From IMG/VR virus record IMGVR_UViG_2541047938_000003, positions 1 to 42,938 of that record: a stretch of DNA of 42,938 nucleotides; one strand, written 5' to 3'. The position numbers and the translations under genes were made by a program. The notes below the pieces were generated by a model that was not told where the DNA came from, did no database searches, and saw only the letters and a program-made list of their open reading frames with translations. Positions 1 to 42,938 of the stretch are shown here, piece by piece. This DNA comes from a virus. Taxonomy: Duplodnaviria; Heunggongvirae; Uroviricota; Caudoviricetes. Each line of letters opens with the position of its first letter. Position 1 is the first letter of the stretch.

Positions 1-1194
1 ATGATCACCGACACAAAGCTCAGGAAGGCGCTCGGCAAGAAAAGAGATGATATCGAGATTATTTCTGATTCGCACGGGCTCAACGCCAGAATCAGCCAGG
101 CCGGAAAAATATCATTTTTCTATCGGTATCGCTGGGCCGGTAAAGCGGTAAAACTCAATGTTGGTGATTATCCTGCAATGAGTATCACCCAGGCAAGAGA
201 GCGTCGCCAACAATTCAGAAACTGGTTAACTGAGGGACTGGATCCGCGAGAGCAGGTGAAGCTGGATAAGCAGACCCGACAGGAAGCGATGTCCGTTGCC
301 GAAGCGTTCAATTACTGGATTGAAAGGCACTGTATCGCTAACGGGCTAGTTAAAGTCGATTACTATCGCCAGGTGTTTGAGAAACATATCGCCGAACCGA
401 TGAAGAATGTCAAAGTCGATAACACAGCGAAAATGCACTGGATCAACGTCTTCGATTCTATAGAAAGCAGGGTGATGGCTCATTACATGCTTTCGCTGTG
501 CAAACGGGCGTTTAGGTTCTGCGTTAACAGAAGTGTGATCGCCTCAAACCCACTCGAGGGATTACTGCCATCTGATGTCGGGCAAAAGCCTAAAAAGAGA
601 ACTCGCAGGATGGACGATGACGATCTGCGCAAAATCTATCAGTGGTTGAAAAGCCATATGTCGATAGAGTCCGTTTTCCTGGTGAAATTTATTATGCTTA
701 CCGGATGCCGTACGGCTGAGATTCGACTTAGTGAGAGATCATGGTTTCGATTGGATGATAATGAGTGGGTCGTGCCTGCGGGCAGTTATAAAACTCGGGT
801 ACATATTAGAAGGGGACTCTCAGACGCCGCCGTTAACCTGGTCAGAAATCACCTCAAGAAAATAAACACCAATCACCTGGTGACTTCACAACGTAAAATT
901 GATGGCGGGATCAAAGATTCGCCCGTTCATTCACCTGTGGCATCCAATTACGCCCGTTCTATTTGGAATGGAACAGGTATGGCAGAGTGGTCGCTTCATG
1001 ATATGAGGCGGACGATAGCCACAAATCTCTCTGAGTTAGGTTGCCCGCCGCACGTAATTGAAAAGCTGCTCGGGCATCAGATGGTGGGGGTTATGGCGCA
1101 TTACAACCTTCATGACTATATCGATGATCAGAAACACTGGCTCCGCGTTTGGCAGAGCCATCTTGAAGAGATCATCGGAGAGCCCTTCAGTTAA
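1..1194 (+). CDS. int: Tyrosine-type phage integrase (P4-like N-terminus), apparently complete
   Basis: ATG at nt 1; N-terminus [10 protein letters not shown]...[10 protein letters not shown] resembles P4-family arm-binding region; C-terminal HDMRRT...LLGHQ...HY catalytic region (R-H-R-Y). Family assignment from memory. Confidence 0.85.
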
Positions 1195-1433
1195 TTTATC
1201 TTCTTTTTATCCTCCCACTCTTTGATTGACTCAGAGCGCCAGCGGTTAGGGTTGCCGGGCCAGTCAGGGGGTGGGAACGGGCATACGAAGCCCCGAGGCA
1301 TTGTGTCTGCACTTTGCCATGACCAAAGGGTTTTGCGTGAAATTTTGTAGCGACTGGTCAGGTCTGACGTTACCAAAATATCATCCATAGCTCTCTCCAG
1401 TTGCCCGTTCGGGCCATTCAAAATCTTTTTCAA
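1191..1433 (-). CDS. AlpA/Xis-like small HTH protein (putative excisionase or regulator)
   Basis: 80 aa; motif [20 protein letters not shown] typical of AlpA-family HTH; 3' end overlaps integrase 3' end by 4 nt (convergent). Confidence 0.55.
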
Positions 1434-1675
1434 CCAACCTGCCCGGGCAGGGAGCGGAGACGGCGCATGCCGGTCATCGCTGTGGCCACGTAGCTCGCCT
1501 TTCGGTTCACCACCTCCACCCAGACTTTCACGCCTTCAACCTTCACCGTATAAGTCTCTTTCATCTTGCTTCGCCCATAGTCGCCATATGTTTGCAAGTG
1601 AGCCGCCAGCGCAACATCGCAAGCGCGGCGACCAATAGGTGATTGCTTACTGCGATTAATCAGCTTCATCATCAC
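1430..1675 (-). CDS. Hypothetical protein
   Basis: 81-aa ORF tightly packed in the leftward operon (4-nt overlaps on both sides); no recognisable motif. Confidence 0.4.
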   Translation of the reverse strand: MMMKLINRSKQSPIGRRACDVALAAHLQTYGDYGRSKMKETYTVKVEGVKVWVEVVNRKASYVATAMTGMRRLRSLPGQVG

Positions 1676-2556
1676 TGCACTCCCAAAGTGGCTACGACAT
1701 CACTCGCTGTTTCGCGGTTACTGCCTTTGCTGGATATAGCCCGGCGAGCACTGACGCGGTGCAGCGTGAAGCCGTGCTGTTCGTAAAGTTCAATTACGCG
1801 CGGAGCGGTAGAATTGCTGATCACCACTTTCGCCCCCCGCTGGTGGGCTGCCACACAGCTTTCCGTAAGCTCTACCTGGCTATCCCATGAGAACCCACCA
1901 GCCGCGTAGTTAGTGAAACCCGCGGTGCCGGGCAGCGGCTCATAAGGCGGATCGCAGTAAACGACGTCACCATCACCAGCCAGCGCGAGCGTGCGCCTGA
2001 AGCCTGCATTCATGAATACGCATGTGTGAGATTTCCGCTTAAATGCCTTGATCTCTTCTTCCGGGAAATATGGCGCTTTATATTTCCCAAAGCCGACGTT
2101 AAAAAAACCGTCCAGGTTATAGCGAATCAGGCCGTTAAAGCAGTGCCGATTGAGGTAAAGGAATGCTGCTGCACGCTCGACCGCATCCAGCCGCTGCGCG
2201 TTGAATGCTTCACGAATTAACGTATAGTTTTCGGCATCATTAAGATGCCTGAATGCCTTCATTGCCTCATAGATCACCGAATCGGGGACCACCGCCAGCA
2301 TCTGATACAGGTTAATCAGGTCAGCGCTGACGTCAGCCAGAAGGAAGCGTTCGTGCTTGTCTGAGTTAAGGAACACCGAGCCGCCACCCACAAAAGGCTC
2401 AATAAGGCGTTTACCTGCGGGGATCAGGCGATCCAGTTCCGGCAGCAGCGAATATTTGCCGCCAGCCCATTTAAGGAACGGGCGCTGCCAGCTGCGCAGC
2501 GCCGGTTCTTCTATGGGCATCGCCGCAGCTCCACTGCAAACAGATCCGTATCTCAT
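1672..2556 (-). CDS. dam: Dam-family DNA N6-adenine methyltransferase
   Basis: FLKWAGGKYSLLPEL and DPPY motifs; alternative start at 2520 (MPIEEP...) has a better GGAG RBS than the ATG at 2556. Confidence 0.85.
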   Translation of the reverse strand: MRYGSVCSGAAAMPIEEPALRSWQRPFLKWAGGKYSLLPELDRLIPAGKRLIEPFVGGGSVFLNSDKHERFLLADVSADLINLYQMLAVVPDSVIYEAMKAFRHLNDAENYTLIREAFNAQRLDAVERAAAFLYLNRHCFNGLIRYNLDGFFNVGFGKYKAPYFPEEEIKAFKRKSHTCVFMNAGFRRTLALAGDGDVVYCDPPYEPLPGTAGFTNYAAGGFSWDSQVELTESCVAAHQRGAKVVISNSTAPRVIELYEQHGFTLHRVSARRAISSKGSNRETASDVVATLGVQ

Positions 2557-2711
2557 GCTGCCACCTGCTTTTCGTTAAGTTCTTCAGCCAGTCGTTGCGC
2601 CTTCAGTGGGTTGGTAACGACTTCACCCCACGGCAGCAACCATCCGTTTTTCTCTTTGAGCCAGGGAAGGCGCACCGCGCCAACCCTGATTTCGTCGTGA
2701 GCGTGAGTCAT
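2553..2711 (-). CDS. Small hypothetical ORF (52 aa), not in the supplied track
   Basis: ATG at 2711 overlaps upstream stop (ATGA) and its TGA overlaps the ATG at 2556; reads MTHAHDEIRVGAVRLPWLKEKNGWLLPWGEVVTNPLKAQRLAEELNEKQVAA. Hand translation only. Confidence 0.35.
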   Translation of the reverse strand: MTHAHDEIRVGAVRLPWLKEKNGWLLPWGEVVTNPLKAQRLAEELNEKQVAA

Positions 2712-3136
2712 AGGATGGACTCCATTTCGTCGATGTAGAGGCCCTGAGCAATCAGGCGGCTACGGCGGGCGGCACGGGCTATGCACTCCTGCCGTCTACC
2801 TTCCTGCGATTGCTCAATGGCGCGCCGGGTGAACAGGCGCGATTTGCCCTGCGGCGTCACAACCTTCGGCTTCGTGACCAGGTCGAAAGTCCGGTCGCAG
2901 ATGCCGTCCCCGTTGATCCACTTTTCCGACTCAACGATCTGCGCTATCTGTCCGGAGCCGCGGGTAATACCGTTGGCTACCCGGTTAAACTCGATGAGCG
3001 TTACGCCAAACTTCTCAGCGATTTCGCTGCCGGTTACCGGGCGGCCGCGCGTCTGAATCATCCAGATAACGCGCTCACGAAGGCCGGAGAATTGCCCGGT
3101 GCGCCCTGGCCTGCGGTAAAATGGTGTGCGTTTCAT
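2708..3136 (-). CDS. Hypothetical protein, possibly DNA-binding
   Basis: 142-aa ORF in operon context with stop/start overlaps; no confident family. Confidence 0.45.
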   Translation of the reverse strand: MKRTPFYRRPGRTGQFSGLRERVIWMIQTRGRPVTGSEIAEKFGVTLIEFNRVANGITRGSGQIAQIVESEKWINGDGICDRTFDLVTKPKVVTPQGKSRLFTRRAIEQSQEGRRQECIARAARRSRLIAQGLYIDEMESIL

Positions 3137-3750
3137 GCTGCACGCTCTGTGATTTTCTGAATTTCCGATTCCAGATCTGCAAGGAAGCTCTTAACCTCAG
3201 ATTCGATTTCGCGCGCCAGCTCTTCATCGAAATGAATCCGCTTCTTGAAATAGGCGAGGTCAGGCGGCAGGCGATCATCGAAACTAACGAAATCACACCA
3301 TTTCCGCCCGGTGCACATCATCTGTGCATGCATTTGCAGCATGTACTGGCGCTTTGGCTCACCAGTTTTCAGCGTTTCAAGATGGGTCCAGGTGTTGGGG
3401 CATTTGATTTCGATAAGCCCGTCGTCGTTGACAAGTCCGTCCGGGCTGGCTGCGAATCCGGGTATGGTTGGGTGATCGATGAGCCCAACTTCAGTGATTG
3501 CCGCATTGAACTCATTCAGCGCGTACATTTCGCGTGCCACTGGCTCAAGTTCAGTGCCGCGCATCATCGCGGCATTCGAAAACCCTTCCTCCAGCTTCCC
3601 GGTCAGCCGTTGGCAAATCAGCTCGGCCATGTAGTTCTGGCGGCTGGTGGAGTAGCCCGACTTAGTCCGGGCCATGACATCAGCCAGGCGACTGGCTGTG
3701 ACCTTGCCGCAGCGCGCAGCAAACCATTCAGGGGTGCGTTGCTCTATCAT
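3133..3750 (-). CDS. YqaJ-like phage recombination exonuclease
   Basis: N-terminus MIEQRTPEWFAARCGKVTASR is a YqaJ/lambda-exo family signature; sits immediately downstream of the bet-like gene. Confidence 0.8.
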   Translation of the reverse strand: MIEQRTPEWFAARCGKVTASRLADVMARTKSGYSTSRQNYMAELICQRLTGKLEEGFSNAAMMRGTELEPVAREMYALNEFNAAITEVGLIDHPTIPGFAASPDGLVNDDGLIEIKCPNTWTHLETLKTGEPKRQYMLQMHAQMMCTGRKWCDFVSFDDRLPPDLAYFKKRIHFDEELAREIESEVKSFLADLESEIQKITERAA

Positions 3751-4508
3751 TCAGCCTCCGTCTCTGCGACATTGACAGGTTCGGCGTTGTCGACAGCAAG
3801 ACTCATGTCATACATGCGTCGTTTCTCAACTGCGCCGATCACCTGTTTCTCTTCGGCGCTCAGAGCCACCCAGAACTCCTGATACTTAACGGTTCCAAGG
3901 CGCGCGGCGGACTCACCTTTTGCGATCAGTTCCGGGCGGCGGCTATCTGATTCATGGCCCGCATGAACCTCTGCCGTTGTTCCTTCAATTACTCGCTCTG
4001 CCTCGTCCTGGTCGAAGATGCCAGCGAAACCAAAGGCCAGACGCGCGCACTGGATCAGCGTCTTGTGGCGAAGCATGCGGGTAGGGTGGGACTGCCATGG
4101 CTGAGTGTTGCGTTTGCACTCTCCCATGTACTCGGTGACGATGGTCGGGTGCTTACGGTCTTTGCGGTAAATCTTGCAGGTACACGCGCCTTCCTCCTTG
4201 TCGTAAGAGAACTCCATGCCGTCAAACTGAGGATGCTCGTTGATAATGCGAGCCCATCCATCAACGCCGACGACCGGGACAATCCCGCCTTTATCTGGGA
4301 ATGCGTAAATCTCTTTGGTCCATGGGTTCAGGCCGTACTGGTTGGCGACGATCAACAGGGCTGTAAACTGCTCGTCCGTGACGTTGCCACCTTTGAACGC
4401 TGTATTCTTCAGCGTATTCATCAGGTCTGTACCGGCATCCATGCCGAGGCGTGCGGCCAGTTTCCCGGCCATGGTGGAAAGTGCAGTACTCATTGTTAAA
4501 TCCCTCAA
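3747..4508 (-). CDS. bet: Bet/RecT-family single-strand annealing protein
   Basis: Strong resemblance to lambda Bet from memory (TALLIVANQYGLNPWTKEIYAFPDK, VGVDGW, RMLRHKTLIQCARLAFGFAGI). Confidence 0.85.
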   Translation of the reverse strand: MRDLTMSTALSTMAGKLAARLGMDAGTDLMNTLKNTAFKGGNVTDEQFTALLIVANQYGLNPWTKEIYAFPDKGGIVPVVGVDGWARIINEHPQFDGMEFSYDKEEGACTCKIYRKDRKHPTIVTEYMGECKRNTQPWQSHPTRMLRHKTLIQCARLAFGFAGIFDQDEAERVIEGTTAEVHAGHESDSRRPELIAKGESAARLGTVKYQEFWVALSAEEKQVIGAVEKRRMYDMSLAVDNAEPVNVAETEAE

Positions 4509-4511
4509 AAA

Positions 4512-4796
4512 TTAAAACGGGCAGCCGGTACGGTGTTCCCAGTCGTATTCCGCCTGGGCGTAAGCAACTACCGAAATGAAATCGTTGTAGGCCTCGCCAG
4601 CTTTATCGCTGCGAAGCCCTTCGTATGGGCTGGAGTCTATCGGGATCGTGAAGTGGAAGAGGCCGGACGGCTCTTTAGGCATCATGTCGATGATTTTCTG
4701 CGCCCGGTCGTCGATCCACTTCTCTTTCTCGTCGGTGATCTGCTGCTCAGCCCAGCGCCGATCTTCGATGCGGTCGTAAGTGAGGTATGCGTTCAT
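4512..4796 (-). CDS. gam: Gam-like host nuclease (RecBCD) inhibitor
   Basis: N-terminus MNAYLTYDRIEDRRWAEQQ resembles the lambda Gam short form [21 protein letters not shown]; position after bet/exo. Confidence 0.65.
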   Translation of the reverse strand: MNAYLTYDRIEDRRWAEQQITDEKEKWIDDRAQKIIDMMPKEPSGLFHFTIPIDSSPYEGLRSDKAGEAYNDFISVVAYAQAEYDWEHRTGCPF

Positions 4797-4803
4797 GGTT
4801 GCC

Positions 4804-5775
4804 TCAGTAATGAATTTTCGCGCAGGGGATCAGGTTATCTTTCAGAGCGGTAAGCACTTCGATAGCCTGCTCGCGGGTTAAGCTGGTTTGGCTGGTGAGC
4901 GCGTTAACGATGTTGGTGCCGACCGTCTTGCGGTGCTTAACGTCAGCTTCACGCTTTGCCTGCTCATCGGCGAGGCGCTTCTCTTCGGCCAGGCGGGCAT
5001 CTTCGGCCTGTTTGGCCTTCAGGCGCTCGGCTTCAACCGCCGCGGCTTTTTCGCGTTCCGCCCGGGCTTCCGCTTCCTGCTTCTCGCGAGCTGCACGCTG
5101 TTCCGCTTCGACGCGCTGGCGCTCCGCCAGTTCAGCGCGGGCTTTCTCTTCGGCTTCACGGCGCGCTGCGGCTTCAATCTCCGCTTTGTGCTTCGCTTCG
5201 GCATCGCGGCGGGCTTGTTCTGCCGCTTCCTGTTTCAGCCGCTCATCACGTTCACGCTGAGCCTGTTCCGCCAGACGGCGCTGCTCTTCGCGGTCACGGT
5301 CAAAATCCTTGTTCATCAGTAGAGCCATTTCGTGGTCCGCTTCGAACTTGGCAGCCAGCTCCTGATCGAACCTGATGTTCATCTCCAGCGCTTCGGCGTG
5401 CATCGCGTTCATGGCTTCTTCAGCCTTAATGCGTTCCTGCTCGGCTTCCCATTCGGTGAGTGGGCGGCGGGTCGCATCGCGCAGCTCGTCGCAGGCATCA
5501 ACGAATCGCTTAATTTCGGCCTCAGCCGGACGCACAGCCTCTTTCAGGCGCTTCAGGTACTCACGGCCCGGCTTTTCGATTGCCGTCTTGCTGCGGGACA
5601 CCTGCGCTGCCAGAGAGGCAACACGGTCACGGCCTTTCTTCGTGGACAGGTCCGGCACTTCGTTTACAGCCTGGCGGATTTGCTCAAGGTACGCGTCAAG
5701 GCCGCCCGCTACGTAAAGCACTGGGGCCTGTTCCGGCTTGATTTCGATGACAGTTAAGTCCGTTACTTCGCTCAT
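4804..5775 (-). CDS. Hypothetical coiled-coil protein with E/R/A/K-rich repeats
   Basis: 323 aa; the long charged low-complexity stretch explains the many spurious antisense ORFs in the track. Confidence 0.5.
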   Translation of the reverse strand: MSEVTDLTVIEIKPEQAPVLYVAGGLDAYLEQIRQAVNEVPDLSTKKGRDRVASLAAQVSRSKTAIEKPGREYLKRLKEAVRPAEAEIKRFVDACDELRDATRRPLTEWEAEQERIKAEEAMNAMHAEALEMNIRFDQELAAKFEADHEMALLMNKDFDRDREEQRRLAEQAQRERDERLKQEAAEQARRDAEAKHKAEIEAAARREAEEKARAELAERQRVEAEQRAAREKQEAEARAEREKAAAVEAERLKAKQAEDARLAEEKRLADEQAKREADVKHRKTVGTNIVNALTSQTSLTREQAIEVLTALKDNLIPCAKIHY

Positions 5776-5845: not shown

Positions 5846-6043
5846 TTACTGCTGCGCGATGGATTTCGCCGGGAACTCGCCGTTGCGGATGATGCTTTCT
5901 ACCGGCCAGCACTCAGCTGACACTTTCTGCTCTGTAGCTGCCAGGCTGCATTCCTGCTGGCTGTCGTAAACGCCGAGAATGACATCCTGATAATCACCGT
6001 TGGTCATTGCCACGGTCAGGACGAGTGCGAATAAAGTTTCCAT
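5846..6043 (-). CDS. Small protein with N-terminal hydrophobic segment (likely start at internal Met)
   Basis: ATG at 6043 preceded by GGGAGGA; METLFALVLTVAMTNG... looks like a signal peptide or TM helix; 66 aa. Confidence 0.45.
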   Translation of the reverse strand: METLFALVLTVAMTNGDYQDVILGVYDSQQECSLAATEQKVSAECWPVESIIRNGEFPAKSIAQQ

Positions 6044-6171
6044 CAGTGAAGAGTCCTCCCGATGGCGACGGCGTAAAGGCGTTTTGCTTCTTCCCACGCC
6101 GGAGCATTGCGATGGAGCACCGCGAACGACGCGAGCCGTTGGGCCTCTCTGATCTGCTGCTGGTTTACCAT
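6043..6171 (-). CDS. Small hypothetical ORF (42 aa), not in the supplied track
   Basis: ATG at 6171 preceded by GAGGAA; stop overlaps the ATG at 6043 (TGATG); MVNQQQIREAQRLASFAVLHRNAPAWEEAKRLYAVAIGRTLH. Confidence 0.3.
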   Translation of the reverse strand: MVNQQQIREAQRLASFAVLHRNAPAWEEAKRLYAVAIGRTLH

Positions 6172-6503: not shown

Positions 6504-7001
6504 CTATTGGAAGGCATCAACTTCATCGTAAAGAACGTTGATGGTTACCGTCGATTCAGTGAGTCGGTCGTGTAATTTTCCAACTTTCTTCAGCGTGCTG
6601 TAACTTTCAGGAACGAAACCCGAATCAATTACAGGCGCGAAGGAAGCTCCGAAGAACAGGTCGCTTTCAAGATCGTGCTTACCAATATGTTTTCCACGGT
6701 GGCGATAGCGATGATCCAAACCGTTCCTGGCTAATTCGTGATACTCACCATTAATAATGACCTTTAAAATTGCAGTTTTAGCGCCGACCTGCATCTTGAT
6801 GAAGGAGTTATCTTTGAAATCTTCCCGAGCCTTAGTTATTTGCTCATCGCTAGTGTTTTCCTGCTTGAGCAATGCCTGTCGAATTTCTTCAACAATTTTC
6901 GCCCTCTCATTAACCGCAGCTTTCGCTTTCTCAAACAATGGGGATGCGAGAAGCAGGTTATGGCATAGCTGATTTTTAATTTCGTTGTTAAGACGAATCA
7001 T
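6504..7001 (-). CDS. Hypothetical accessory protein, first ORF of the leftward early operon
   Basis: 165 aa; AT-rich by eye relative to flanks; contains RYRHRGKH (Rx4H-like). Not arginine-rich, so not N-like. Confidence 0.5.
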   Translation of the reverse strand: MIRLNNEIKNQLCHNLLLASPLFEKAKAAVNERAKIVEEIRQALLKQENTSDEQITKAREDFKDNSFIKMQVGAKTAILKVIINGEYHELARNGLDHRYRHRGKHIGKHDLESDLFFGASFAPVIDSGFVPESYSTLKKVGKLHDRLTESTVTINVLYDEVDAFQ

Positions 7002-7419
7002 TGACTTACCCTCTGTCGTTACCCGCTGATGCGGGAGAAATGCTTTGGCGATGTGGTAGGTGGGAGACCCATTTCGACCCGATTCGGCCTACTTATCTTC
7101 GGCAATAGCTCCTCGGGCCTCGCCGCTTTACGTGCGACATATTCCCGTCCATGAACCCTTCACCACATCCCATAACATTCCCTGTATTGGTCAGCGCCAA
7201 CTCCCTGCCAGTGTTGCCCGTTCTCACGCCGTTCTCGCTCTCGCGCGGGGATACTCTCTCACCGACCGGATCGCACCCGGTGATACAGCACGTTTACGTG
7301 TAGGGGTCTTAACAGGTCATTGACGCTGTAAATCTGCATGTTGTTAAAAAGCAGGCGACTTGCTGTCCGCCGCTGGCTAACTTCGCTCAGCTGTCGATGT
7401 TTCGTTTCGATGGGGTAAA

Positions 7420-7577: not shown

Positions 7578-8255
7578 TTATGGGATGTTTAGTATTTTGG
7601 CATCAACCACAACGCCGATGATTTTGCAGTTTCCATTAATTTCTAGCATTGGATATGCGGGGTTAAGGGGCTTTAGGAAGCGTCTGCCGGCATCGATTAC
7701 AAGCTTCTTAAAGGTCGCTTCGTTATCGCCTTCTAGCTTCGCGACAACCAGCTTTCCGTTGCGCGGCTCGACTTCAGGATCAACAAGTATCGCTGCTCCC
7801 TCGGGTATGCTCAGTCCAGCCGGGGAGGTCATAGAATCCCCTTTAACGTCCAGCCAGAATGAATCTTCTGAGCAGTCAACAGTCGTGTCATACCAGCGAT
7901 CTATCGCTCTTCGGTGATAAGGTTCTACAGCTTCCATCCATTGCCCCGCGCTTACCCAGCTGATTACAGGATAACTTCCTTTTGTCTCGTTCAGTCCTCG
8001 AAATGCAACGTTCGAAGGTTCTTCACTGGCGTGTAAAACATCCATCCAGCCAAAAGGCAGATCAAGCGCAGTTTCAATTTTGCGAGCCATCTTATCGCCG
8101 ATATTGCGATGAGGGTTTGGTCCCAGTAGCTGACTAAGCGCAGCCGGACTTGTCTCGATGAGCTCGGCAAACTGCGCTTTGGTCATTCCAGACTCGTGCT
8201 GACGCTTCTCGTACAGCGCTTCCAGGTTGGCTTTTCTGATTTCTTTATTTTCCAT
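7578..8255 (-). CDS. cI: cI-like repressor (HTH plus S24 LexA-type autopeptidase domain)
   Basis: Start set at ATG 8255 (MENKEIRK...); HTH region QFAELIETSPAALSQL; S24 motifs GDSM and VVAKL; operator repeats on both sides. Confidence 0.85.
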   Translation of the reverse strand: MENKEIRKANLEALYEKRQHESGMTKAQFAELIETSPAALSQLLGPNPHRNIGDKMARKIETALDLPFGWMDVLHASEEPSNVAFRGLNETKGSYPVISWVSAGQWMEAVEPYHRRAIDRWYDTTVDCSEDSFWLDVKGDSMTSPAGLSIPEGAAILVDPEVEPRNGKLVVAKLEGDNEATFKKLVIDAGRRFLKPLNPAYPMLEINGNCKIIGVVVDAKILNIP

Positions 8256-8273
8256 ACCTGCATTGTTACTGCT

Positions 8274-8339
8274 TTTAGCAAAATGATAAATGTGCAAATT
8301 GCTAAATGATGCTTGCGTAGTATTTAGCATAACGCTAAA
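8274..8339. promoter_or_regulatory. OR-like operators and candidate rightward promoter
   Basis: 8274-8290 TTTAGCAAAATGATAAA; 8323-8339 TTTAGCATAACGCTAAA (perfect palindrome); candidate promoter TTGCGT (8313-8318) - 17 nt - TAAACT (8336-8341) overlapping the operator. Confidence 0.5.
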
Positions 8340-14104: not shown

Positions 14105-14155
14105 GCCCTAACGTGTTGATGACCTTATCAGACCTAAACAGGAGGTTTTTCTAAA

Positions 14156-28744: not shown

Positions 28745-28759
28745 GGCGGAGTGTTTCTC

Positions 28760-35305: not shown

Positions 35306-35641
35306 ATGGATCCGATAACCAACATCACTGACGAACCTATCCAGCGGCATGTTCTGATTTTTGACCGTGGTGAGGCTGTGGTCACTATTCGTTATCTGCC
35401 TACGGTTGAAATGTGGAAAATGCGCGTGGAGTACAACGGTGATTACATCGACGGCGTGAAGCTGTCCCTCGGGACGCTACATTTTCGGCACAAGAACTGG
35501 CCTTTCGACGTTGTGTTACTTTGCGCTGACAATTCCGGCATTGACCCATATCGGGCTGACGACTTCGCCAGTGGTCGCATCGAAATGTATCTGGTCACGC
35601 CGGAAGAGATGATTGATATTCGCGGGGGAGACGTGCCGTGA
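35306..35641 (+). CDS. Tail/baseplate protein, unknown
   Basis: 111-aa ORF in operon. Confidence 0.4.
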   Translation: MDPITNITDEPIQRHVLIFDRGEAVVTIRYLPTVEMWKMRVEYNGDYIDGVKLSLGTLHFRHKNWPFDVVLLCADNSGIDPYRADDFASGRIEMYLVTPEEMIDIRGGDVP

Positions 35642-36585
35642 TGGATACTTTTTACCGTGATTATCGGCTGACGGTGGGGATCGGCAATCAAGCAGTGATT
35701 ATCGAGCCACCGATCACCGTGTCATTCAAGGCGCTGGAAACTGTGGACAAGAAGTCACTCGGCAAGCTGAGTGTGTCCATCAACGGGCTAAAGCCTTCCA
35801 CGCGTCTGCAATTGCTCAAGTCCGAAGATGAAGAGAAGTATATCCCCGTTCGACTCGAGGTTGGTTACGACGGCAAGCTGCGCCAGGTATTTCAGGGTTC
35901 GGTTAAAAGCGGAGCAGTAAAGCGTGAGGGGGCGATCCACATCGTCAGCCTGGAATGTGAAGACGGTGGCCACGACTATATCAACGCCTTCACATCGCGC
36001 ACGGTACGCGGGAAAGATCAGGTCGTCGATTCTGTCTTGCAGGATATGCCAAACACGAAAAAAGGCTCTGTGACGAAGCAACAAGCACTCATCAGGCCGA
36101 AGGTTCTGGTAGGTAGCTCCAGTAAAATTCTTACCGATACCCTTGCGCCCGACGAGTCATTTTTCATCAAAGATGAGCGCGTCCACATCCTCAAGGCTAA
36201 TGAGGTTACATCGGGTAACATTCCAGTCGTGAATGCGCGTAGCGGCCTGCTAAATACGCCTCAGGCTACGAAGATTAGCGCGCAGGATGACGGCGGGAAA
36301 AAGGCCAAAAAGCCGACCAATGAGCCTGATACGGATCCGGCAGGCAAAAAAGATACTGACTCGAGTACCTTAGCCAAATCCTCGAAAGGGCAGATCGTAT
36401 TCGATACGAAACTGAATCCTATGCTGGTGATCGGTGGGCTTTGCGCTGTTGAAAGCGTGACGAACCCCGCGTTAAACGGGGTTTATAAGATATACCAGAT
36501 TGAAACCAGCGGGCAGAACAACGGGGCAGCCTGGTATCAGAAGGTGGTATGCCAGCCTGCCGGAAATTACTCAGTTGTTAACTGA
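35638..36585 (+). CDS. Baseplate hub-like protein (putative)
   Basis: 315 aa; position between tape measure and spike/baseplate genes. Confidence 0.45.
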   Translation: MMDTFYRDYRLTVGIGNQAVIIEPPITVSFKALETVDKKSLGKLSVSINGLKPSTRLQLLKSEDEEKYIPVRLEVGYDGKLRQVFQGSVKSGAVKREGAIHIVSLECEDGGHDYINAFTSRTVRGKDQVVDSVLQDMPNTKKGSVTKQQALIRPKVLVGSSSKILTDTLAPDESFFIKDERVHILKANEVTSGNIPVVNARSGLLNTPQATKISAQDDGGKKAKKPTNEPDTDPAGKKDTDSSTLAKSSKGQIVFDTKLNPMLVIGGLCAVESVTNPALNGVYKIYQIETSGQNNGAAWYQKVVCQPAGNYSVVN

Positions 36586-37104
36586 AGATTTTACTTCTTG
36601 CGTTACGCTGGAATTGGTTTTTTCTGGTGGGTGACGATCTGAAAGCCAGCCAAGAGCAAAAATAATGACTGTGAGAATAAAAATTTTCTCGCCTATTGAA
36701 AACTTCACCTTACCACCTGCATTTTTAAATGCCGTTTTCTCCTCGGTTGATAGTTTTCTAAATTGCTTATGGGTTAATACCATGACCAATGGGCGAGGTG
36801 GTTGAATATCTTCCTGACCATCCTCTAACAACGTTGAGTCCGAAAAGAAACCAAGCCGCTCAGGTGCTTGTTCCTCTACGTTCTCAGCGTGTTTACCGGT
36901 GGAGTTCTTTTGACCCGCGAGCAAGTTTCCACTCGTGTAAGACAAACCGGTACCGGGAATGCCTGCGGTTGCCTTTACCCCTTTTTTACCAACGTTCAGG
37001 GTAGCACCAGCCTTACCAATTGATGCGCTAGTAATGCCTGTTTTACCTATGTTTATATGAATGCCTGGTGCAATTTTGATGCGCTGTCTGAATTTGAATC
37101 CCAT
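36571..37104 (-). CDS. Reverse-strand accessory gene: DUF4236-like N-terminus with C-terminal TM helix
   Basis: MGFKFRQRIKIAPGIHINIGKTGITSASIGKAG...GIPGTGLSY matches the remembered DUF4236 pattern; hydrophobic IFILTVIIFALGWL; strong RBS AAGGAGAG; AT-rich; opposite strand to all flanking tail genes. Confidence 0.6.
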   Translation of the reverse strand: MGFKFRQRIKIAPGIHINIGKTGITSASIGKAGATLNVGKKGVKATAGIPGTGLSYTSGNLLAGQKNSTGKHAENVEEQAPERLGFFSDSTLLEDGQEDIQPPRPLVMVLTHKQFRKLSTEEKTAFKNAGGKVKFSIGEKIFILTVIIFALGWLSDRHPPEKTNSSVTQEVKSSVNN

Positions 37105-37219: not shown

Positions 37220-37837
37220 ATGATCGAAGAACTTCACGACACTATCGGCCTGGGTGTTGAATTTGCTCTGGCCGATGTTCACACCATTGTTGTCGCAAAA
37301 ATAACGTCTGTAAATGACAAAACAATCAGTTGCGTCCCCGTTATCAATCGGGTTGTGAAAGGGAGCAGCAAGCAACTCCCAGAGTTCATTGAAGTCCCCC
37401 CGGTAATTTTGCAAGGCGGTGATAGTTATATCGCCGAACCAATTGCGGCTGGTGACTATTGCCTCGTCCTTATCTCTGAGCGTTGTTATGACGCTTGGTA
37501 TGCGGGTAGCGACTTTGTTTCACCACTTGAAATGCGTATGCACGATTATTCAGATGGCTTCGCTCTGTGTGGGGTTAACCCACAGGCTACCGCGATCAAT
37601 ATCCCTAAGAAGAACAGGATGATGAAGGGGGATTCTGACCACGAGGGTGATTTAAACCTCACAGGAAATATTACCCAGAAAGATGGTAAGACGACTCTGG
37701 AAGAATGCGATGTTCTGAATGTACTTCAATATTCCCAGGTAAAGACAGGCGGTAAGTCTGGGGTGTCTGGTTCATTTCGAAGCGATGACGGGAAAACAAT
37801 CACAGTTACCAACGGTATTGTCACGGAGATCTCATGA
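37220..37837 (+). CDS. Baseplate spike/gpV-like protein (putative)
   Basis: 205 aa at the start of the baseplate gene block. Confidence 0.45.
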   Translation: MIEELHDTIGLGVEFALADVHTIVVAKITSVNDKTISCVPVINRVVKGSSKQLPEFIEVPPVILQGGDSYIAEPIAAGDYCLVLISERCYDAWYAGSDFVSPLEMRMHDYSDGFALCGVNPQATAINIPKKNRMMKGDSDHEGDLNLTGNITQKDGKTTLEECDVLNVLQYSQVKTGGKSGVSGSFRSDDGKTITVTNGIVTEIS

Positions 37838-38214
37838 TTGTTTCAGCACTTGATAAAAATGACGACTGGGGATTTGGGCGCGGGAAGGCAAACTATATAA
37901 CTGGCGGTGCTGCTATCGCGCAGAAAGCCAAATGCCGGATCCGCTCGTTCAAAAACGATAATCCTCTCCACATGGATGACAACATCGACTGGCTTTACCT
38001 GTTATCAGAGAAAAACACCGAGCAGGAGATTCTGCGGGAGATAGAGCGCGTGACGCTGGCGACGGATGGGGTTATGCGCATTACCGCTCTGGCGATGGAG
38101 GTCAATAAGGCCACCCGGTCACAAAAAATCGAACTCAGCATTGAGACCGTCTATGACCAGCAGACGATCACCTTCCCGGTCAACGGAGCGTTGAAGAATG
38201 GCACTACAGTTTAG
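37834..38214 (+). CDS. Baseplate protein (gpW/gp25-like, putative)
   Basis: 126 aa immediately upstream of the J-like gene. Confidence 0.4.
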   Translation: MIVSALDKNDDWGFGRGKANYITGGAAIAQKAKCRIRSFKNDNPLHMDDNIDWLYLLSEKNTEQEILREIERVTLATDGVMRITALAMEVNKATRSQKIELSIETVYDQQTITFPVNGALKNGTTV

Positions 38215-39379
38215 CGACAACGGCCTTGAGACAAGCACTCTCCGGGAGTTATTTCAGGAACTGAGCGACGGATATAAGGGAATTTATGGTCAGGATATCG
38301 ATTTAGACCAGGAATCTCCCGACGGTCAACGCGTGGCAATCGAAGCTCAGGCTCGGGCAGATATTGAAGCCGCGCTGCAATGGCTTTATTCCCAAATGGA
38401 CCCCGATTTTAATACTGGTGATATGCAGCAGATTATCGCCAAACTTCACGGGCTTTTCCTTCGCCCCGGCTCCCGGTCTCAGCGTGACCTTAAAGTCACA
38501 ACAGACAGGCCGGTGCTTCTCTATAGCGGGTACAAGATACGGGACCAGGCAAATCAGGTCTGGGCTATCCGACAGGACGTGACCGTTCCGGCGGGCGTCA
38601 CAACAGCCACCTTTTTTGCTCAAAACTTTGGGAAAGTTACTGGGCTTGTGAATGACACCTTCACTCAACTCACACCAGAACCAGGGATTGTGAGCATTAT
38701 CTCTGATTCCGCGGTTGTGGTCGGTCGGGATGAGGAAACGCCTGAAGAATTCAGGCAACGCCGGAACCGGTCGCTTGAGAACCCGGCAACAGGTAGCACT
38801 GGGGCGGTTTTCGCTAAAGTTGCTCAACTGACAGGTGTAATTGATCTGAATATCGGAGAGAACGACACAAAAATTGATAATCCGACGACGGGTATCCCGG
38901 CCAATTCAATATGGCTGGTCGTTGAGGGGGGAGCGATTTCAGAAATTGTGGAGGTGATGGTTAAACAGAAAGGCGGTGGAACGGGAACGAAAGGCAGCAT
39001 AACCGGACGTTTTACCGAGACCCTGATTCGGCCTGACGGCACTTCATTTCTGATAGCCCATGAACTTCAGTTTGATCGGCCCATCTATAAGCCGCTTCAT
39101 ATCAGGCTTAATGCCCGCCGGAAGATTCAAAGCGAACCGATAGATATCGATACTCTCAAAAAATCTCTTGCATCACGCACCATGCATATTGGTGAGTCTG
39201 TGGATGCCAATGAATTTTATGAGAATGGGTATGGGGTAGGACGGGTAAATTTTGTGCTGACCAATCTGCAAATTAGCAGTAATGGGGCAGATTACACCGA
39301 TGCTGAGTTATCGCCAGGCTTTCAGGGAAAGTTCACGTTGAGTGTGGAAAATATAGACGTTAACGAGGTGGTCCAGTGA
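38198..39379 (+). CDS. Baseplate J-like protein
   Basis: 393 aa; size and order (W-J-I-fibre) typical of contractile-tail baseplates. Confidence 0.55.
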   Translation: MALQFSDNGLETSTLRELFQELSDGYKGIYGQDIDLDQESPDGQRVAIEAQARADIEAALQWLYSQMDPDFNTGDMQQIIAKLHGLFLRPGSRSQRDLKVTTDRPVLLYSGYKIRDQANQVWAIRQDVTVPAGVTTATFFAQNFGKVTGLVNDTFTQLTPEPGIVSIISDSAVVVGRDEETPEEFRQRRNRSLENPATGSTGAVFAKVAQLTGVIDLNIGENDTKIDNPTTGIPANSIWLVVEGGAISEIVEVMVKQKGGGTGTKGSITGRFTETLIRPDGTSFLIAHELQFDRPIYKPLHIRLNARRKIQSEPIDIDTLKKSLASRTMHIGESVDANEFYENGYGVGRVNFVLTNLQISSNGADYTDAELSPGFQGKFTLSVENIDVNEVVQ

Positions 39380-40098
39380 ATGACGACATCATTAACCGCT
39401 ACACGCTAATGCTCATCAAACAATATTGGGAAAAGAAAAAAGCAAGATCAGAGATACAGGCCATGCTCAGGCACTGGCAAATCATCGCCGATTTTATTCG
39501 TAACCCAGATAACTTTGATCTCGACCGGGTTACCGGATACCGGCTTGATGTCATTGGCCGGATAGTCGGCCTTCACCGTAGTGTGCCTGCTGTTATTGCC
39601 CGTGTATTTTTCGGGTTTGACGGACATCTGAATACCGCAGGCTTCGACAGTAAATCTAATGCGGCGTATGTCGGCGCACCTTTCTACAGCAAGTTTTCGC
39701 CGGCATATGGTGACTATCAACTGGCTGACAATGAGTATCGCAGGTTCCTTCGGGTCAAAATTGCGCGAAACGCCGCAGGTGCAACGATAGCGTCAGACGA
39801 TCGGGTCAGCCTGCAGGATGTTATACAGACGGCTTTCAACGGCGAAGCTTACGTGACCGACAGAAAAGACATGACGCTTGCTTTGAACGTTTCGCCGCGG
39901 GTATCAGTTGAAGAGTTACGCCTGATTGTGAAGCTTGGCCTGCTGCCGAAACCTGCGGGCGTTCGATACGATTATTTTTATCAGGTGACTCCTGGTCTGA
40001 CATTCGGTTTCTCGCGAAACCCTTCGGCCAGAGGATTCGCCAGCAAGTTTAATACCGCCTACCAGGGCGGTTTTTTTTCGAGGAAAATCCATGTCTAA
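39376..40098 (+). CDS. Baseplate/tail protein I-like (putative)
   Basis: 240 aa between J-like and tail-fibre genes. Confidence 0.45.
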   Translation: MNDDIINRYTLMLIKQYWEKKKARSEIQAMLRHWQIIADFIRNPDNFDLDRVTGYRLDVIGRIVGLHRSVPAVIARVFFGFDGHLNTAGFDSKSNAAYVGAPFYSKFSPAYGDYQLADNEYRRFLRVKIARNAAGATIASDDRVSLQDVIQTAFNGEAYVTDRKDMTLALNVSPRVSVEELRLIVKLGLLPKPAGVRYDYFYQVTPGLTFGFSRNPSARGFASKFNTAYQGGFFSRKIHV

Positions 40099-40981
40099 GA
40101 TTGTACGATATCAGGGAGATGTTCGGGCTTTTGCCTCTGATGCACAGGGAATGGAAAGAACCGTGTTTGGTGGAACAAATCAGGCGGATGACCTGACCTC
40201 GCAAATTACGGCATCTTTCCTTCGCGGATGGGGCATTGTTGGCGCTTCCGAACACCCCTCGCTTGAGGACTTCAATGCGGCAATGTATGCAATGAGTCAG
40301 TTCATTGCGTATCAGCACCAAATGGGGGTTCCAGAGTGGCATGCAGAACAGGAATATCATATCGGTTCGATCTGCACACATAACGGTGAATCTTATCAGT
40401 CCTTACAAAATGCAAATATTGGTAGCCAGCCGCCATCAGCAAAATGGACTCCTGTATTAACGTCAAAAAACGGTCTCGCAAACCTTGGTTTGGGAGAAGG
40501 CTCAGCGTTACCCGTTGGTGTACCTGTACCATATCCACTGGCTACACCACCAACAGGATGGATGAAGTGCAACGGTTCATCTTTCAATAAAACGTTACTA
40601 CCTGCGTTGGCTGCTGTTTATCCATCCGGCGTCCTTCCAGACCTGCGGGGTGAATTCATTCGTGGTTGGGATGATGGGCGAGGTGTAGATAGCGGGCGCA
40701 AGCTAATGAGCGCCCAGGAAGATGCCATAAGAAATATCTCCGGAACAGTTCGCATAGTATCCAACTCATATAATCAAAACACAGCAAGGCAAATGACTGG
40801 GGTATTTGGATGGAGTGAGTCATCGGCTGGAGATACCACTAATTTTGTACTTACAGCCGCATCAAACACATCCGGGTATAAAAATGGTGGGTTTACATTT
40901 GATGCTTCATCACAGGTTCCAACGGCCCTGGAGAATCGACCGAGAAACATTGCGTTTAACTACATTGTGAGGACCGCATAA
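40091..40981 (+). CDS. Tail fibre protein (constant N-terminal part plus current-orientation variable C-terminus)
   Basis: Crossover repeat lies inside the ORF near codon 130 (GLANLGLGEG); followed by a tail-fibre assembly gene. Confidence 0.7.
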   Translation: MSKIVRYQGDVRAFASDAQGMERTVFGGTNQADDLTSQITASFLRGWGIVGASEHPSLEDFNAAMYAMSQFIAYQHQMGVPEWHAEQEYHIGSICTHNGESYQSLQNANIGSQPPSAKWTPVLTSKNGLANLGLGEGSALPVGVPVPYPLATPPTGWMKCNGSSFNKTLLPALAAVYPSGVLPDLRGEFIRGWDDGRGVDSGRKLMSAQEDAIRNISGTVRIVSNSYNQNTARQMTGVFGWSESSAGDTTNFVLTAASNTSGYKNGGFTFDASSQVPTALENRPRNIAFNYIVRTA

Positions 40982-41584
40982 ATGGAACAGGTGATTTTAG
41001 ACGAAAACGGATATGCAACAACAGATGGTCAGATAACGGTCTACAACTATGATGGAGAAACGCGCGAATACATGACGTTATCAGTTGAGTATCTTGTTGC
41101 TGGTTTTGGTATCCCTGCGCATTCCAGCACTGATGCACCGGGTGAGCACAAGGACGGTTTTGCAATCTGCCGCAATGCAGATTCAACCGGGTGGGAATAT
41201 GTTGCAGACCATCGCGGTGAAATCATCTATAGCACCGAAACAGGAGAATCGAAAGAAATCACAGCTCTGGGTGATTACCCTGAAAATACAACCACTATCG
41301 CCCCGTTAACGCCATATGATAAATGGGATGGTGAGAAATGGGTGACGGATACTGAGGCACAGCATAGCGCCGCAGTAGAAGCGGCAGAAGCACAGCGCCA
41401 GTCACTGATTGATGCAGCAATGGCTTCCATCAGTCTGATTCAACTGAAATTACAGGCCGGACGGAAGCTGACGCAGGCAGAAACAACCAGGCTTAACGCT
41501 GTGCTGGATTACATTGACGCGGTGACGGCAACAGATACCAGCACCGCGCCGGATGTCATCTGGCCTGAACTGCCGGAGGCGTAG
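40982..41584 (+). CDS. Tail fibre assembly protein (Tfa/U-like)
   Basis: C-terminal …LDYIDAVTATDTSTAPDVIWPELPEA typical of Tfa chaperones. Confidence 0.7.
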   Translation: MEQVILDENGYATTDGQITVYNYDGETREYMTLSVEYLVAGFGIPAHSSTDAPGEHKDGFAICRNADSTGWEYVADHRGEIIYSTETGESKEITALGDYPENTTTIAPLTPYDKWDGEKWVTDTEAQHSAAVEAAEAQRQSLIDAAMASISLIQLKLQAGRKLTQAETTRLNAVLDYIDAVTATDTSTAPDVIWPELPEA

Positions 41585-42014
41585 GCCATTCAATATCTGG
41601 CGCACTGGAGGTATCAACCAGTTCCAGTGCGTTCAGATAATCCAGCCACAAATTATATTGCGCCAGTTCCTCACCTTTCAGACGACCAATAGCCGCTTTA
41701 CCAGGCCATTGTTTACTGTTCATGTATTCGTTGGCATGGTTAATCAATAATTGCCTCTCTGATTCGGCCTGTTCAATAAGTTCCTCATGTGATGGTGGAG
41801 GTATTTCAACCCATGTAGGATTGCCATAACCGTCCGACCCTCTGATTTTTCCAGTCGGCGGGAATCCTAAAAACTGGGTTGCATCCTCCTCGCTAATATC
41901 AGTGAATGTGGCGATTTCATCTTCGCTCAATTTATAATCGGAAATTGACGCAGCAGGATAGAATAATGCATTCTTTGGATCAAATTTATACATTTCAATT
42001 ACCCCGCTATCCAT
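41556..42014 (-). CDS. Alternative tail fibre assembly protein (inverted orientation)
   Basis: C-terminal …LDYLNALELVDTSSAPDIEWPTPP parallels the + strand Tfa; convergent and overlapping its 3' end. Confidence 0.7.
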   Translation of the reverse strand: MDSGVIEMYKFDPKNALFYPAASISDYKLSEDEIATFTDISEEDATQFLGFPPTGKIRGSDGYGNPTWVEIPPPSHEELIEQAESERQLLINHANEYMNSKQWPGKAAIGRLKGEELAQYNLWLDYLNALELVDTSSAPDIEWPTPPAVQAR

Positions 42015-42337
42015 CTGTATGCGACTGGCATACTTCCAACCTGTGAAACATCAAACCCCTGCCTCGATTTTCGCAACACATTTACGGCCCCTTTATTTGC
42101 TCCGGAATCTGATGCACAAACGATAACTTCGAAATCGTCATACGGAAATGGTATCGGGAATAAAATGTTAGTTTGATTTGATGCCATAGCAAATCCCCGC
42201 TGTATTATTCTCCCCGACGGGTCTCTATTCCATCCTGTCCCAGATGTCCATTCTGACATACTAGGTATCTGATTTTCCCCTGTTCCCACATTCCGTTTTG
42301 CCGCTTCTCCCAAACCAACCTTTTTTATAACCATCAA
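41999..42337 (-). CDS. Alternative tail-fibre C-terminal variable segment (promoterless, expressed only after inversion)
   Basis: Minus-strand ORF whose 5' end is at the right crossover repeat; begins …VGLGEAAKRNVGTGENQIP, in register with GLANLGLGEG of the + strand fibre at the left repeat. Confidence 0.6.
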   Translation of the reverse strand: MMVIKKVGLGEAAKRNVGTGENQIPSMSEWTSGTGWNRDPSGRIIQRGFAMASNQTNILFPIPFPYDDFEVIVCASDSGANKGAVNVLRKSRQGFDVSQVGSMPVAYRWIAG

Positions 42338-42389
42338 AAATCTGGTGATGCTTCGCCGTTTCTCCTGTTTTCATAACAGGAGAAATCCC

Positions 42390-42938
42390 ATGATTTACGG
42401 TTATGCCCGAGTATCAACAAACCACCAGGATACTGAATTGCAACTAACGGCGCTCAAGTCAGCGGGTTGTGAGAAAATTTTTGAAGAGCATGCCAGCGGG
42501 AGGAAATCGAATCGGCCGGTTCTAAAACGGCTGATCGCCACTATGCAGCCGGGGGATGAACTGGTGGTCTGGAAGCTGGACAGGATAGGCCGCAACGTTC
42601 TGCATGCGCTGTTGATGTTCCAGCAGTTACAGGAAAAGGGTATCAACTTCCGCAGTATTACCGATGGCGTGGATCTCAAAACAGCCAGCGGCCGCTATAA
42701 CTTTCGTAACATCCTTTCCGCAGCACAATATGAATCTGATCTTAATAGCGAACGTACCTTAGCAGGGCTGGCCGTAGCCAGGGCAAAAGGGCGAGTTGGT
42801 GGTCGCAGGCCTAAGTTCACGAATGAGCAATGGCGGGAAATGGGGGAGCGGATGGCAACCGGTGAATCACGACAAAGCGTATCAAAAACGTATGGAGTAG
42901 GGCTCTCAACTCTGTATAAAAAGTTTCCAGCTAGCTGA
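42390..42938 (+). CDS. Serine DNA invertase (Hin/Gin/Cin/Pin family)
   Basis: MIYGYARVSTNHQDTELQ... catalytic Ser region; AGGAG RBS; C-terminal HTH; immediately outside the invertible segment. Confidence 0.9.
   Translation: MIYGYARVSTNHQDTELQLTALKSAGCEKIFEEHASGRKSNRPVLKRLIATMQPGDELVVWKLDRIGRNVLHALLMFQQLQEKGINFRSITDGVDLKTASGRYNFRNILSAAQYESDLNSERTLAGLAVARAKGRVGGRRPKFTNEQWREMGERMATGESRQSVSKTYGVGLSTLYKKFPAS

Follow-up and report, generated by a model that had tools for sequence, protein, structure and literature searches.

Does the viral DNA examined here, a stretch of 42,938 nucleotides (nt) from IMG/VR record IMGVR_UViG_2541047938_000003 (hereafter the window), belong to one phage, and if so, how did lambda-like early genes come to stand beside the genes of a contractile tail? 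We conclude, with a probability of about 0.9, that the window is one nearly whole Escherichia coli prophage, in which phi80-type, lambda-like control, replication and lysis genes are joined to an XM1-type head and contractile tail. Its temperate phage genome is very probably about 43.3 kb long and integrated at the phi80 attachment (att) site between kch and yciI. The original prediction, made from the sequence alone, had described lambdoid early and lysis modules joined to a contractile-tail module. This description was borne out by homology and by sister prophages sharing either half, and each element it listed (integrase, early and lysis genes, tail genes, invertible fibre and invertase) was found at the place given for it.

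The window was cut along gene boundaries, beginning with the start codon of int, the first annotated gene, and ending with the stop codon of the invertase, the last one. Its edges at nt 1 and nt 42938 are therefore coding-sequence edges produced by the cutting and not by biology; as had been pointed out, the invertase stop coincides with the window end (the open reading frame (ORF), 42345..42938, ends at the last base). Leftward genes occupy 1.2-8.4 kb and a rightward block runs from 8.4 kb to the window end; the only minus-strand genes within it are one at 36.6-37.1 kb and two at 41.6-42.3 kb, so that all late genes lie on one strand except one inserted gene and a silent fibre cassette. One integrase, one terminase and one lysis cassette are present. 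According to PHROG and Pfam matches and to co-linearity with the phi80 annotation, the early and lysis genes (1-21 kb) stand in lambda order, with int, xis, recombination, immunity, replication, nin, Q and lysis genes followed by the virion genes.

Both ends of the element could be located in contigs that reach beyond the window. Contig KE702357.1 (GCA_000461255.1) is identical to window positions 1-12556 with no mismatch, and in it the 17-bp phi80 att core (AGAACACTTTCTTAAAT) begins 203 nt to the left of nt 1, beside kch. The same 17-mer is found again in Logan contig SRR958752_90, which is identical to positions 30091-42938 without a mismatch; here it begins 121 nt beyond the right edge of the window, where yciI has its 3' end, with tonB and trp genes further out. 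Extension on both sides thus recovered the direct repeats, with attL just left of the window as had been supposed, and the prophage measures 43,278 bp from the attL core to the attR core, within the size of less than 50 kb that characterizes dwarf myoviruses (PMC8309999). Inside the window, no copy of the core was found with up to three mismatches allowed. A flanking tRNA or tmRNA gene had been suggested as the target, which is instead att80, the phi80 attB region. The E. coli prophage in EC17CM13 has the same flanking repeat at the same kch/yciI site, and the NADC1036 prophage also sits there.

The integration genes agree with this location. The integrase is 100% identical to phi80 Int over 397 amino acids (aa) and Xis is 99% identical to phi80 Xis; the two genes are convergent, and their stop codons overlap by 4 nt, exactly as in phi80. 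This convergence, and the Xis assignment, had been anticipated, while the alternative label 'AlpA-like' was dropped because a Pfam search with Xis gave no match and the protein is that of phi80. The phi80 genome reads pinL, attP core, pI promoter, int and xis; integration brings int to the left end and pin to the right, which is the arrangement observed in the window. In the phi80 annotation, int starts at an in-frame ATG that would lie 15 nt left of nt 1, and the window may miss the first five int codons together with the pI promoter.

The contractile tail was examined at the protein level, as were the other virion genes. Fifteen consecutive genes in 28751-40500 (up to the 5' part of the fibre gene) match gp2-gp18 of Vibrio phage XM1 and g12-g27 of Yersinia phage fEV-1 in order, at 32-61% aa identity, and the tail genes of Vibrio phage 1.052.A are likewise matched in order. 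Residues 3-499 of the 500-aa protein align with the XM1 sheath gp6 (PDB 7kh1/7kjk, solved by electron cryo-microscopy (cryo-EM); E = 6.4e-157), with identities of about 52% to gp6 and 58% to fEV-1 g15. The XM1 sheath has been imaged by cryo-EM in both extended and contracted states (PMC10457771), and fEV-1 is a dwarf myovirus by electron microscopy (EM) (PMC8309999). The baseplate set follows the XM1 order (ring, plug, hub, spike, sheath initiator, wedge 1, wedge 2 and fibre dock) at 36-56% identity to gp11-gp18; identities are 36-54% to gp11-gp13 for ring, plug and hub, and 42-61% to XM1 and fEV-1 for spike, sheath initiator and wedges. We also considered whether the 500-aa protein might be something other than a sheath; its full-length homology identifies it as one, and the tail is accordingly predicted to be contractile. 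The same had been proposed from sheath-sized, tube-sized and baseplate J genes, which match the solved XM1 proteins gp6, gp7 and gp16, respectively.

Some smaller features of the tail region were also noted. The PhageMin_Tail match of the tape measure protein (33.1 bits) lies just under the gathering cut-off of 33.2 bits. A conserved 52-aa ORF, shorter than the ORF length cut-off used and aligned by eye, overlaps the tape measure start at 32691 and may encode a second, possibly frameshift-linked, chaperone product. The minus-strand DUF4236 gene has no counterpart in XM1, fEV-1 or 1.052.A, where the hub and spike genes abut; the sister prophages of E. coli have kept it, and it resembles an accessory gene that is expressed independently.

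The head proteins fall in the same Pfam families as those of the XM1 head. At the level of identity, they are 37-71% identical to those of Proteus phage ZX7 and only 24-28% identical to those of XM1 and fEV-1. Thus, the head genes are nearest to ZX7 (about 70% at most) and the tail genes to fEV-1, XM1 and 1.052.A (at most 61%), with reciprocal identities of 24-33%. These opposite nearest relatives place a head/tail recombination joint near 28744-28751. The large terminase subunit (TerL) is 51% identical to XM1 TerL and 74-81% identical to TerL of Morganella, Proteus, Providencia, Xenorhabdus and Mixta prophages with unrelated heads and tails; the terminase has thus travelled separately from the remainder of the virion block. 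A TerL scan of a genome collection gave 25 loci, among which the same virion block was present only in Kluyvera and Citrobacter, the others sharing the terminase only; TerL is a poor marker for this phage type. Judged by the different closest relatives of tail, head and TerL, the virion block is itself a composite. Its G+C content (50-53%) is like that of the rest of the prophage and unlike that of XM1 (42%), which argues against a recent arrival from Vibrio.

Besides these protein-level relatives, sister prophages at the same site share one half of the window and not the other, so that the mosaicism can be read directly from the alignments. The NCTC9040 prophage shares 1-5854, 6202-7046, 7204-12066, 14706-17250 and 18520-19892 at 96-99.5%, with 98-99% in 1-12066 and 14706-17250, and the Pin gene at 97%, and carries a lambda-type head and a Mu-type contractile tail between the shared segments; none of its virion genes matched those of the window. 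In EC17CM13, by contrast, 1-1663 and 18979-40499 are shared (99.9%), and the early genes are Rac-like, with RecE/RecT and YdaT-type genes. NADC1036 also has Rac-like RecE/RecT early genes, and its virion block is shared at about 94%, with homology starting exactly at terS (21225). Among species-representative genomes, Kluyvera cryocrescens and Citrobacter murliniae have the same virion block (83-99% aa identity) behind lambdoid lysis genes, and the junction from lysis genes to terS recurs in E. coli, Kluyvera and Citrobacter. The comparison with related prophages that had been recommended thus revealed both halves of the window with other partners. Lambdoid phages are classically defined by their ability to form viable recombinants with one another, for which such natural hybrids offer indirect support. 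A strong terminator-like hairpin (21182..21207; 11 pairs and a T run) lies 18 nt before terS, and homology with the approximately 94%-identical virion blocks of NADC1036, TUM9803 and VE-F5 begins at 21225, right after it.

The right end of the element holds a fibre switch, which had also been foreseen and on which the inverted repeats, the flip seen in EC17CM13 and an in silico inversion agree. In its current form, the fibre consists of a constant baseplate-docking N-terminus (about 120 aa, 47-55% identical to XM1 gp18 and fEV-1 g27) and a variable C-terminus A. The two crossover sites are complementary at 18 of 20 positions (90%). Co-linear identity with EC17CM13 ends exactly at the left site, and both sites are the breakpoints of an inversion relative to that prophage, in which the flanks are 100% co-linear and the part 41192-42318 aligns at 96% when reversed. 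After inversion in silico, the segment yields an in-frame fibre of 237 aa that matches the annotated EC17CM13 fibre; both orientations therefore occur in nature. The site core, AAACCTTGGTTT, resembles the gix/hix core. The adjacent invertase, whose ATG at 42390 is the likely true start, has 99% aa identity to phi80 PinL and 99.5% DNA identity to HK225. Invertases of the Gin/Cin/Pin/Hin family use a Fis-bound recombinational enhancer, which lies inside the invertase gene. The expressed fibre C-terminus/Tfa cassette (40500..41191) has no close counterpart in EC17CM13 (L001 46074..47478), whose corresponding silent Tfa is only 78% identical in protein; this mismatch indicates that cassettes inside the segment have been exchanged between strains.

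Features of the window, with positions, strand and the match or other basis for each assignment.
Feature	Position	Strand	Basis
Tyrosine integrase, phi80 type	1..1194	+	Pfam Arm-DNA-bind_3 1.4e-18, Phage_integrase 7.8e-17
Excisionase Xis, 65-aa form	1191..1388	-	PHROG excisionase 1.4e-33
Leftward early operon	1430..5775	-	PHROG matches; 27-100% identities to phi80
DUF4060 protein, orf142	within 1430..5775	-	PHROG
Dam methylase, intact, 294 aa	1672..2556	-	PHROG
Lambda-type exonuclease (Exo)	3133..3750	-	PHROG
Bet-like annealing protein	3747..4508	-	PHROG
GamL	4512..4796	-	PHROG
Agt/Mog-like protein	4804..5775	-	PHROG
DUF1482 small protein	5846..6097	-	Pfam DUF1482 5.2e-24
Nmad5-domain ORF, amber-shortened	6504..7001	-	Pfam Nmad5 9e-10
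pL/nutL leader region	6997..7418	-	99% identical to phi80 32786-33207
cI repressor	7578..8330	-	Pfam HTH_3 and Peptidase_S24 1.9e-29; PHROG repressor
Cro-like protein	8372..8605	+	PHROG
CII-like/YdaT-domain protein	8623..9165	+	PHROG CII-like 1.1e-59
O-like initiator	9388..10293	+	PHROG 1.5e-67
DnaB-like helicase	10280..11716	+	PHROG 2.6e-130
Ren-like protein	11716..12060	+	PHROG 8.6e-29
nin region and late regulator, including Pol III theta-like protein	13850..17605	+	PHROG
NinB	14835..15338	+	PHROG; 99% identical to phi80
NinI phosphatase	15472..16173	+	PHROG; 92% identical to phi80
HNH	16088..16450	+	PHROG
RusA	16447..16806	+	PHROG
Q antiterminator	16916..17605	+	Pfam Phage_antiter_Q 2.7e-71
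isrJ-like RNA	17621..17694	+	Rfam at gathering threshold, 68.7 bits
tRNA-Asn	17704..17778	+	ARAGORN, Rfam
HNH endonuclease	17814..18239	+	PHROG
STnc100-like RNA	18495..18687	+	Rfam, 71.7 bits
Holin	19093..19371	+	Pfam HP1 holin and P21 holin S families, weak
GH24 lysozyme, hydrophobic N-terminus	19343..19891	+	Pfam Phage_lysozyme 5.7e-23
Rz-like DUF2514 protein	19888..20406	+	Pfam DUF2514 6.7e-44
Embedded Rz1 lipoprotein ORF	20090..20344	+	lipobox LLASC read from translation
Terminase small subunit (TerS)	21225..22223	+	Pfam Terminase_2 4.9e-28
Terminase large subunit, T4-type	about 22189..23607	+	Pfam Terminase_6N, 6C
Portal	23607..24950	+	Pfam Phage_portal_3 2.2e-84
MuF-like protein	24901..25758	+	Pfam Phage_Mu_F
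DUF2213 scaffold-like protein	25762..26910	+	Pfam DUF2213
Cement protein	26913..27395	+	Pfam XM1_gp53_minor_capsid 2e-26
Major capsid protein	27399..28367	+	Pfam Major_capside 1.7e-51
DUF4054 adaptor	28382..28744	+	Pfam DUF4054
Neck/tail-completion genes	28751..30170	+	32-58% identical, in order, to XM1 gp2, gp4, gp5 and fEV-1 g12-g14
Tail terminator	29682..30170	+	Pfam Phage_tail_terminator_9 2.7e-14
Predicted contractile tail sheath, 500 aa, DUF3383 family	30171..31673	+	Pfam DUF3383 1.3e-69
Tail tube	31684..32115	+	PDB 7kh1 XM1 gp7, E = 2.8e-35, residues 1-141 of 143
Tail assembly chaperone	32124..32537	+	34-46% identity range with XM1 gp8, fEV-1 g17
Conserved 52-aa ORF	32546..32704	+	aligned with fEV-1 g18, XM1 gp9
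Tape measure	32691..34487	+	34-46% identity range with XM1 gp10, fEV-1 g19; Pfam PhageMin_Tail 6.5e-8
Dit-like ring	34487..35293	+	Pfam Dit_like 1.5e-16
Plug	35306..35641	+	Pfam Pam3_gp18
Hub	35638..36585	+	Pfam E217_GP41 2.9e-9
DUF4236 gene, between hub and spike genes	36571..37104	-	Pfam DUF4236 4.9e-19
Spike	37220..37837	+	Pfam spike N-domain
Sheath initiator	37834..38214	+	precomputed Pfam Sheath_initiator on identical contig
Wedge 1/baseplate J	38198..39379	+	Pfam Baseplate_J; PDB 7kh1 XM1 gp16, E = 1.1e-99
Wedge 2/DUF2612	39376..40098	+	Pfam DUF2612 4e-29
Tail fibre, current form, 296 aa	40091..40981	+	Pfam Collar 7.9e-13
Left crossover site, inside fibre gene	40480..40499		20-nt inverted repeat
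Invertible segment, 1.8 kb	40500..42303		Pfam Caudo_TAP twice, Gp53-like_C
Tfa-A	40982..41584	+	Caudo_TAP
Tfa-B	41556..42014	-	Caudo_TAP
Alternative fibre C-terminus B	from 41999 up into right-hand site	-	inside invertible segment
Right crossover site	42304..42323		20-nt inverted repeat
Pin-type serine DNA invertase	42390..42938	+	Pfam Resolvase 4.6e-39, HTH_7 3.3e-9

The early region had been called lambda/21-like. 'Lambdoid' is correct, and the DNA comparison favours 'phi80/HK225-like' as the more exact label: phi80 covers 31% of the region at 95% identity and HK225 24% at 97%, and the DNA is a patchwork of phi80, HK225, mEp237, CobraSix and HK639 segments. Resemblance to phage 21 is limited to the holin and the lysozyme with its hydrophobic N-terminus. 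The leftward early operon is 98.6% identical in DNA to the NCTC9040 prophage. With regard to its dam gene, the phi80 counterpart is annotated as a frameshifted pseudogene, of which only 152 aa align in one frame to the window Dam. The immunity region has the lambdoid layout, with cI (helix-turn-helix and S24 self-cleaving domain) divergent from cro and a cII-like gene downstream, whose product is 78% identical to phi80 CII.

In phi80, the segment 32786-33207 carries the annotated nutL core, boxA and the pL -10 element. DNA identity with this leader ends two codons into N, and the position of phi80 gene N, directly after the nutL/pL leader, is occupied in the window by the Nmad5 ORF, in which a TAG replaces a Leu codon of the NCTC9040 version (165 aa versus 222 aa). 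Neither tblastn with phi80 N nor a scan of small leftward ORFs gave a convincing N homologue anywhere in the window. As a candidate for N, the Arg-rich start of the maximal 83-aa ORF at 5846..6097 was dropped, the DUF1482/PHROG match beginning at an internal Met. N proteins diverge fast, and an unrecognised N analogue is possible.

Q lies directly upstream of the late leader and lysis genes, and a promoter-like site at 17589-17617 is followed by the leader RNAs. In the Rfam scan of the window, the isrJ-like, STnc100-like and tRNA matches were the only ones and all fall in the late leader; the STnc100-like RNA ends in a terminator-like hairpin (18657-18676). These two small RNA families may simply be conserved late-leader segments of lambdoid prophages.

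Taken together, these genes very probably form a natural hybrid of four parts, namely a phi80-type integration cassette (Pin, attP, Int and Xis) that determines the insertion site, lambda-ordered early and lysis genes, the virion block and the fibre switch. The element most likely works as follows. Int and Xis would integrate and excise the phage at att80, and a LexA-like, cleavable cI would keep lysogeny until its cleavage after DNA damage. The O-like protein and the phage helicase would replicate the genome. Q would allow RNA polymerase to read from a promoter just after the Q gene across the leader, the lysis genes and some 22 kb of virion genes, which presumably form one long rightward late operon transcribed from the Q-modified promoter. 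The T4-type terminase probably packages by headful. The tail would assemble on the hub as in XM1 and contract on receptor binding, and Pin would flip the 1.8-kb segment so that the C-terminal half of the fibre and its chaperone are swapped, presumably changing the receptor.

Whether this machinery still produces particles is less certain, and only tentatively, at odds slightly short of even, do we regard the element as a temperate E. coli phage that can be induced and that builds, as its virion, an XM1-type 'minimal' contractile injection machine. Several observations weigh against our reading. Inducibility and particle formation are predictions from gene families. The virion block occurs in only 5 of 5,426 complete E. 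coli genomes, and among 50,697 phage records no isolated phage matched it at the DNA level: in a megablast search with 21001-42938, only the fibre-chaperone and invertase end gave matches. With no N homologue and a truncated Nmad5 ORF after nutL, delayed-early expression may differ or be impaired. Moreover, the EC17CM13 sister copy has internal stops in its replication and Q genes (L001 18248..19156 and 23002..23811) and is probably defective despite its 99.9%-identical virion block, so that decay does occur in the lineage. The missing N, the amber stop, the stops in EC17CM13 and the rarity of the block would all fit a defective, non-inducible prophage, that is, a fossil mosaic no longer making particles. 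We nevertheless consider such decay of the window copy rather unlikely, because, measured against their relatives, its structural, lysis, replication, Q, cI, int and xis ORFs all retain full length, neither att core is damaged, unrelated strains from chicken and human carry virion blocks that are 99.9% identical, and the occurrence of the fibre segment in both orientations suggests a recently active invertase.

It could also be argued that the window holds two adjacent elements, the remnant of a lambda-like prophage and an independent small myovirus prophage, since the left half is nearest to phi80/HK225 and the right half to XM1/fEV-1/ZX7, and since the halves are paired with other partners in sister strains. 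This is highly improbable: a single att pair brackets the whole 43.3 kb with no core inside, only one integrase is present, and the essential functions occur once each, the left half having no head or tail genes and the right half no replication, immunity or lysis genes. XM1-type relatives carry polymerase, primase or helicase genes of their own, which are absent from the window, and the junction of lysis genes with terS recurs in three genera. Least credible of all is a domesticated contractile injection device such as a tailocin, for although XM1-type tails are simple and have been compared with R-type pyocins (PMC10457771), a full packaging and head set (TerS, TerL, portal, MuF, scaffold-like, cement, capsid and adaptor) lies directly upstream in the same operon, neck and tail-terminator genes join head to tail, and int, xis and att are retained.

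If the reading as an inducible hybrid phage is correct, it would provide a lambda-like, genetically tractable E. coli model for a structurally solved machine, and would clearly exemplify the passage of an entire virion block between virulent-type and temperate phages. A simple, structurally solved contractile tail in a lambda-like background with a receptor switch could also be of use in engineering. The att80 platform of Int and Pin can host no fewer than three virion types that are unrelated, namely a lambda-like siphovirus, a Mu-type myovirus and an XM1-type myovirus. On the other hand, this is textbook modular phage evolution, with breakpoints readable almost to the base; the mechanism is ordinary, opens no new question and will not surprise phage specialists.

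Among known systems, phi80 (together with HK225 and mEp237) is closest in the integration and early genes. In addition to Int (100%), Xis (99%) and PinL (99% protein identity), the window shares with it the layout of pin, attP and an inward int convergent with xis, the 17-bp core, the kch/yciI target and early segments including the nutL/pL leader (99%), NinB, the NinI phosphatase and the CII-like protein. However, phi80 itself has a lambda/N15-type head, a non-contractile tail, cos ends, N, a lambda-P-type replication gene and a frameshifted dam, whereas in the window the virion is XM1-type, the terminase T4-type and the helicase DnaB-like, dam is intact and there is no N homologue.

XM1, whose cryo-EM structure is PDB 7kh1/7kjk/7kmx, and fEV-1 resemble the window gene for gene in tail and baseplate (32-61% aa identity) and are similar in genome size. 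They differ in their head proteins (24-28% identical), in having no invertible fibre segment and no DUF4236 insert, and in encoding a DNA polymerase, primase or helicase of their own while lacking annotated integrase and immunity genes. Proteus phage vB_PmiM_ZX7 is the closest isolated phage for the head (capsid about 70%, cement 64%, portal 46%, MuF 42%), whereas its tail genes are only 25-33% identical and its replication is of virulent type, with primase/polymerase and helicases. None of XM1, fEV-1 and ZX7 has an annotated integrase, and all carry genes for a polymerase, primase or helicase; among isolated phages, therefore, those nearest to the virion block replicate with genes of virulent type, and the XM1-type machine has so far been isolated only in such phages of Vibrio, Yersinia and Proteus.

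The serine invertases of Mu (G/Gin), P1 (C/Cin) and e14 (P/Pin) likewise lie beside a segment with short inverted sites, the left one in the fibre gene, and with two facing fibre C-termini, each with its own Tfa. Compared with those switches, that of the window is attached to an XM1-type baseplate-docking fibre N-terminus, and its cassettes vary between strains.

Temperate phages that are lambdoid and have contractile tails include the SfV/SfIV-type Shigella phages. SfV-type tails are Mu-like, and so is that of the NCTC9040 prophage (subtilisin-like-domain sheath, DNA circularization protein, GP46 and YmfQ), attached to its lambda-type head. SfIV has been shown by EM to be a myovirus and has a lambdoid switch (PMC3851460). 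Aggregatibacter (Haemophilus) phage Aaphi23 (43 kb) has int, cI, cro, cII, O, a DnaB-like P, dam, ninB, ninG and Q, followed in its late part by holin/lysin/Rz/Rz1, terS, terL, portal, a DUF3383-family sheath, tube, chaperone, tape measure, baseplate and fibre genes. Aligned over their full length, the sheaths of Aaphi23 and the window share 30% identity. Aaphi23 differs in this low sheath and capsid identity (about 30%), in its integrase and att site, in having no invertible segment and in its host family. Thus, a lambdoid mosaic with a contractile tail is already known from Aaphi23, which combines lambda order with this sheath family and an identical baseplate layout, and from the SfV-type phages; what is new here is that an XM1/fEV-1-type tail and a ZX7-type head occur together with the phi80 att80 frame.

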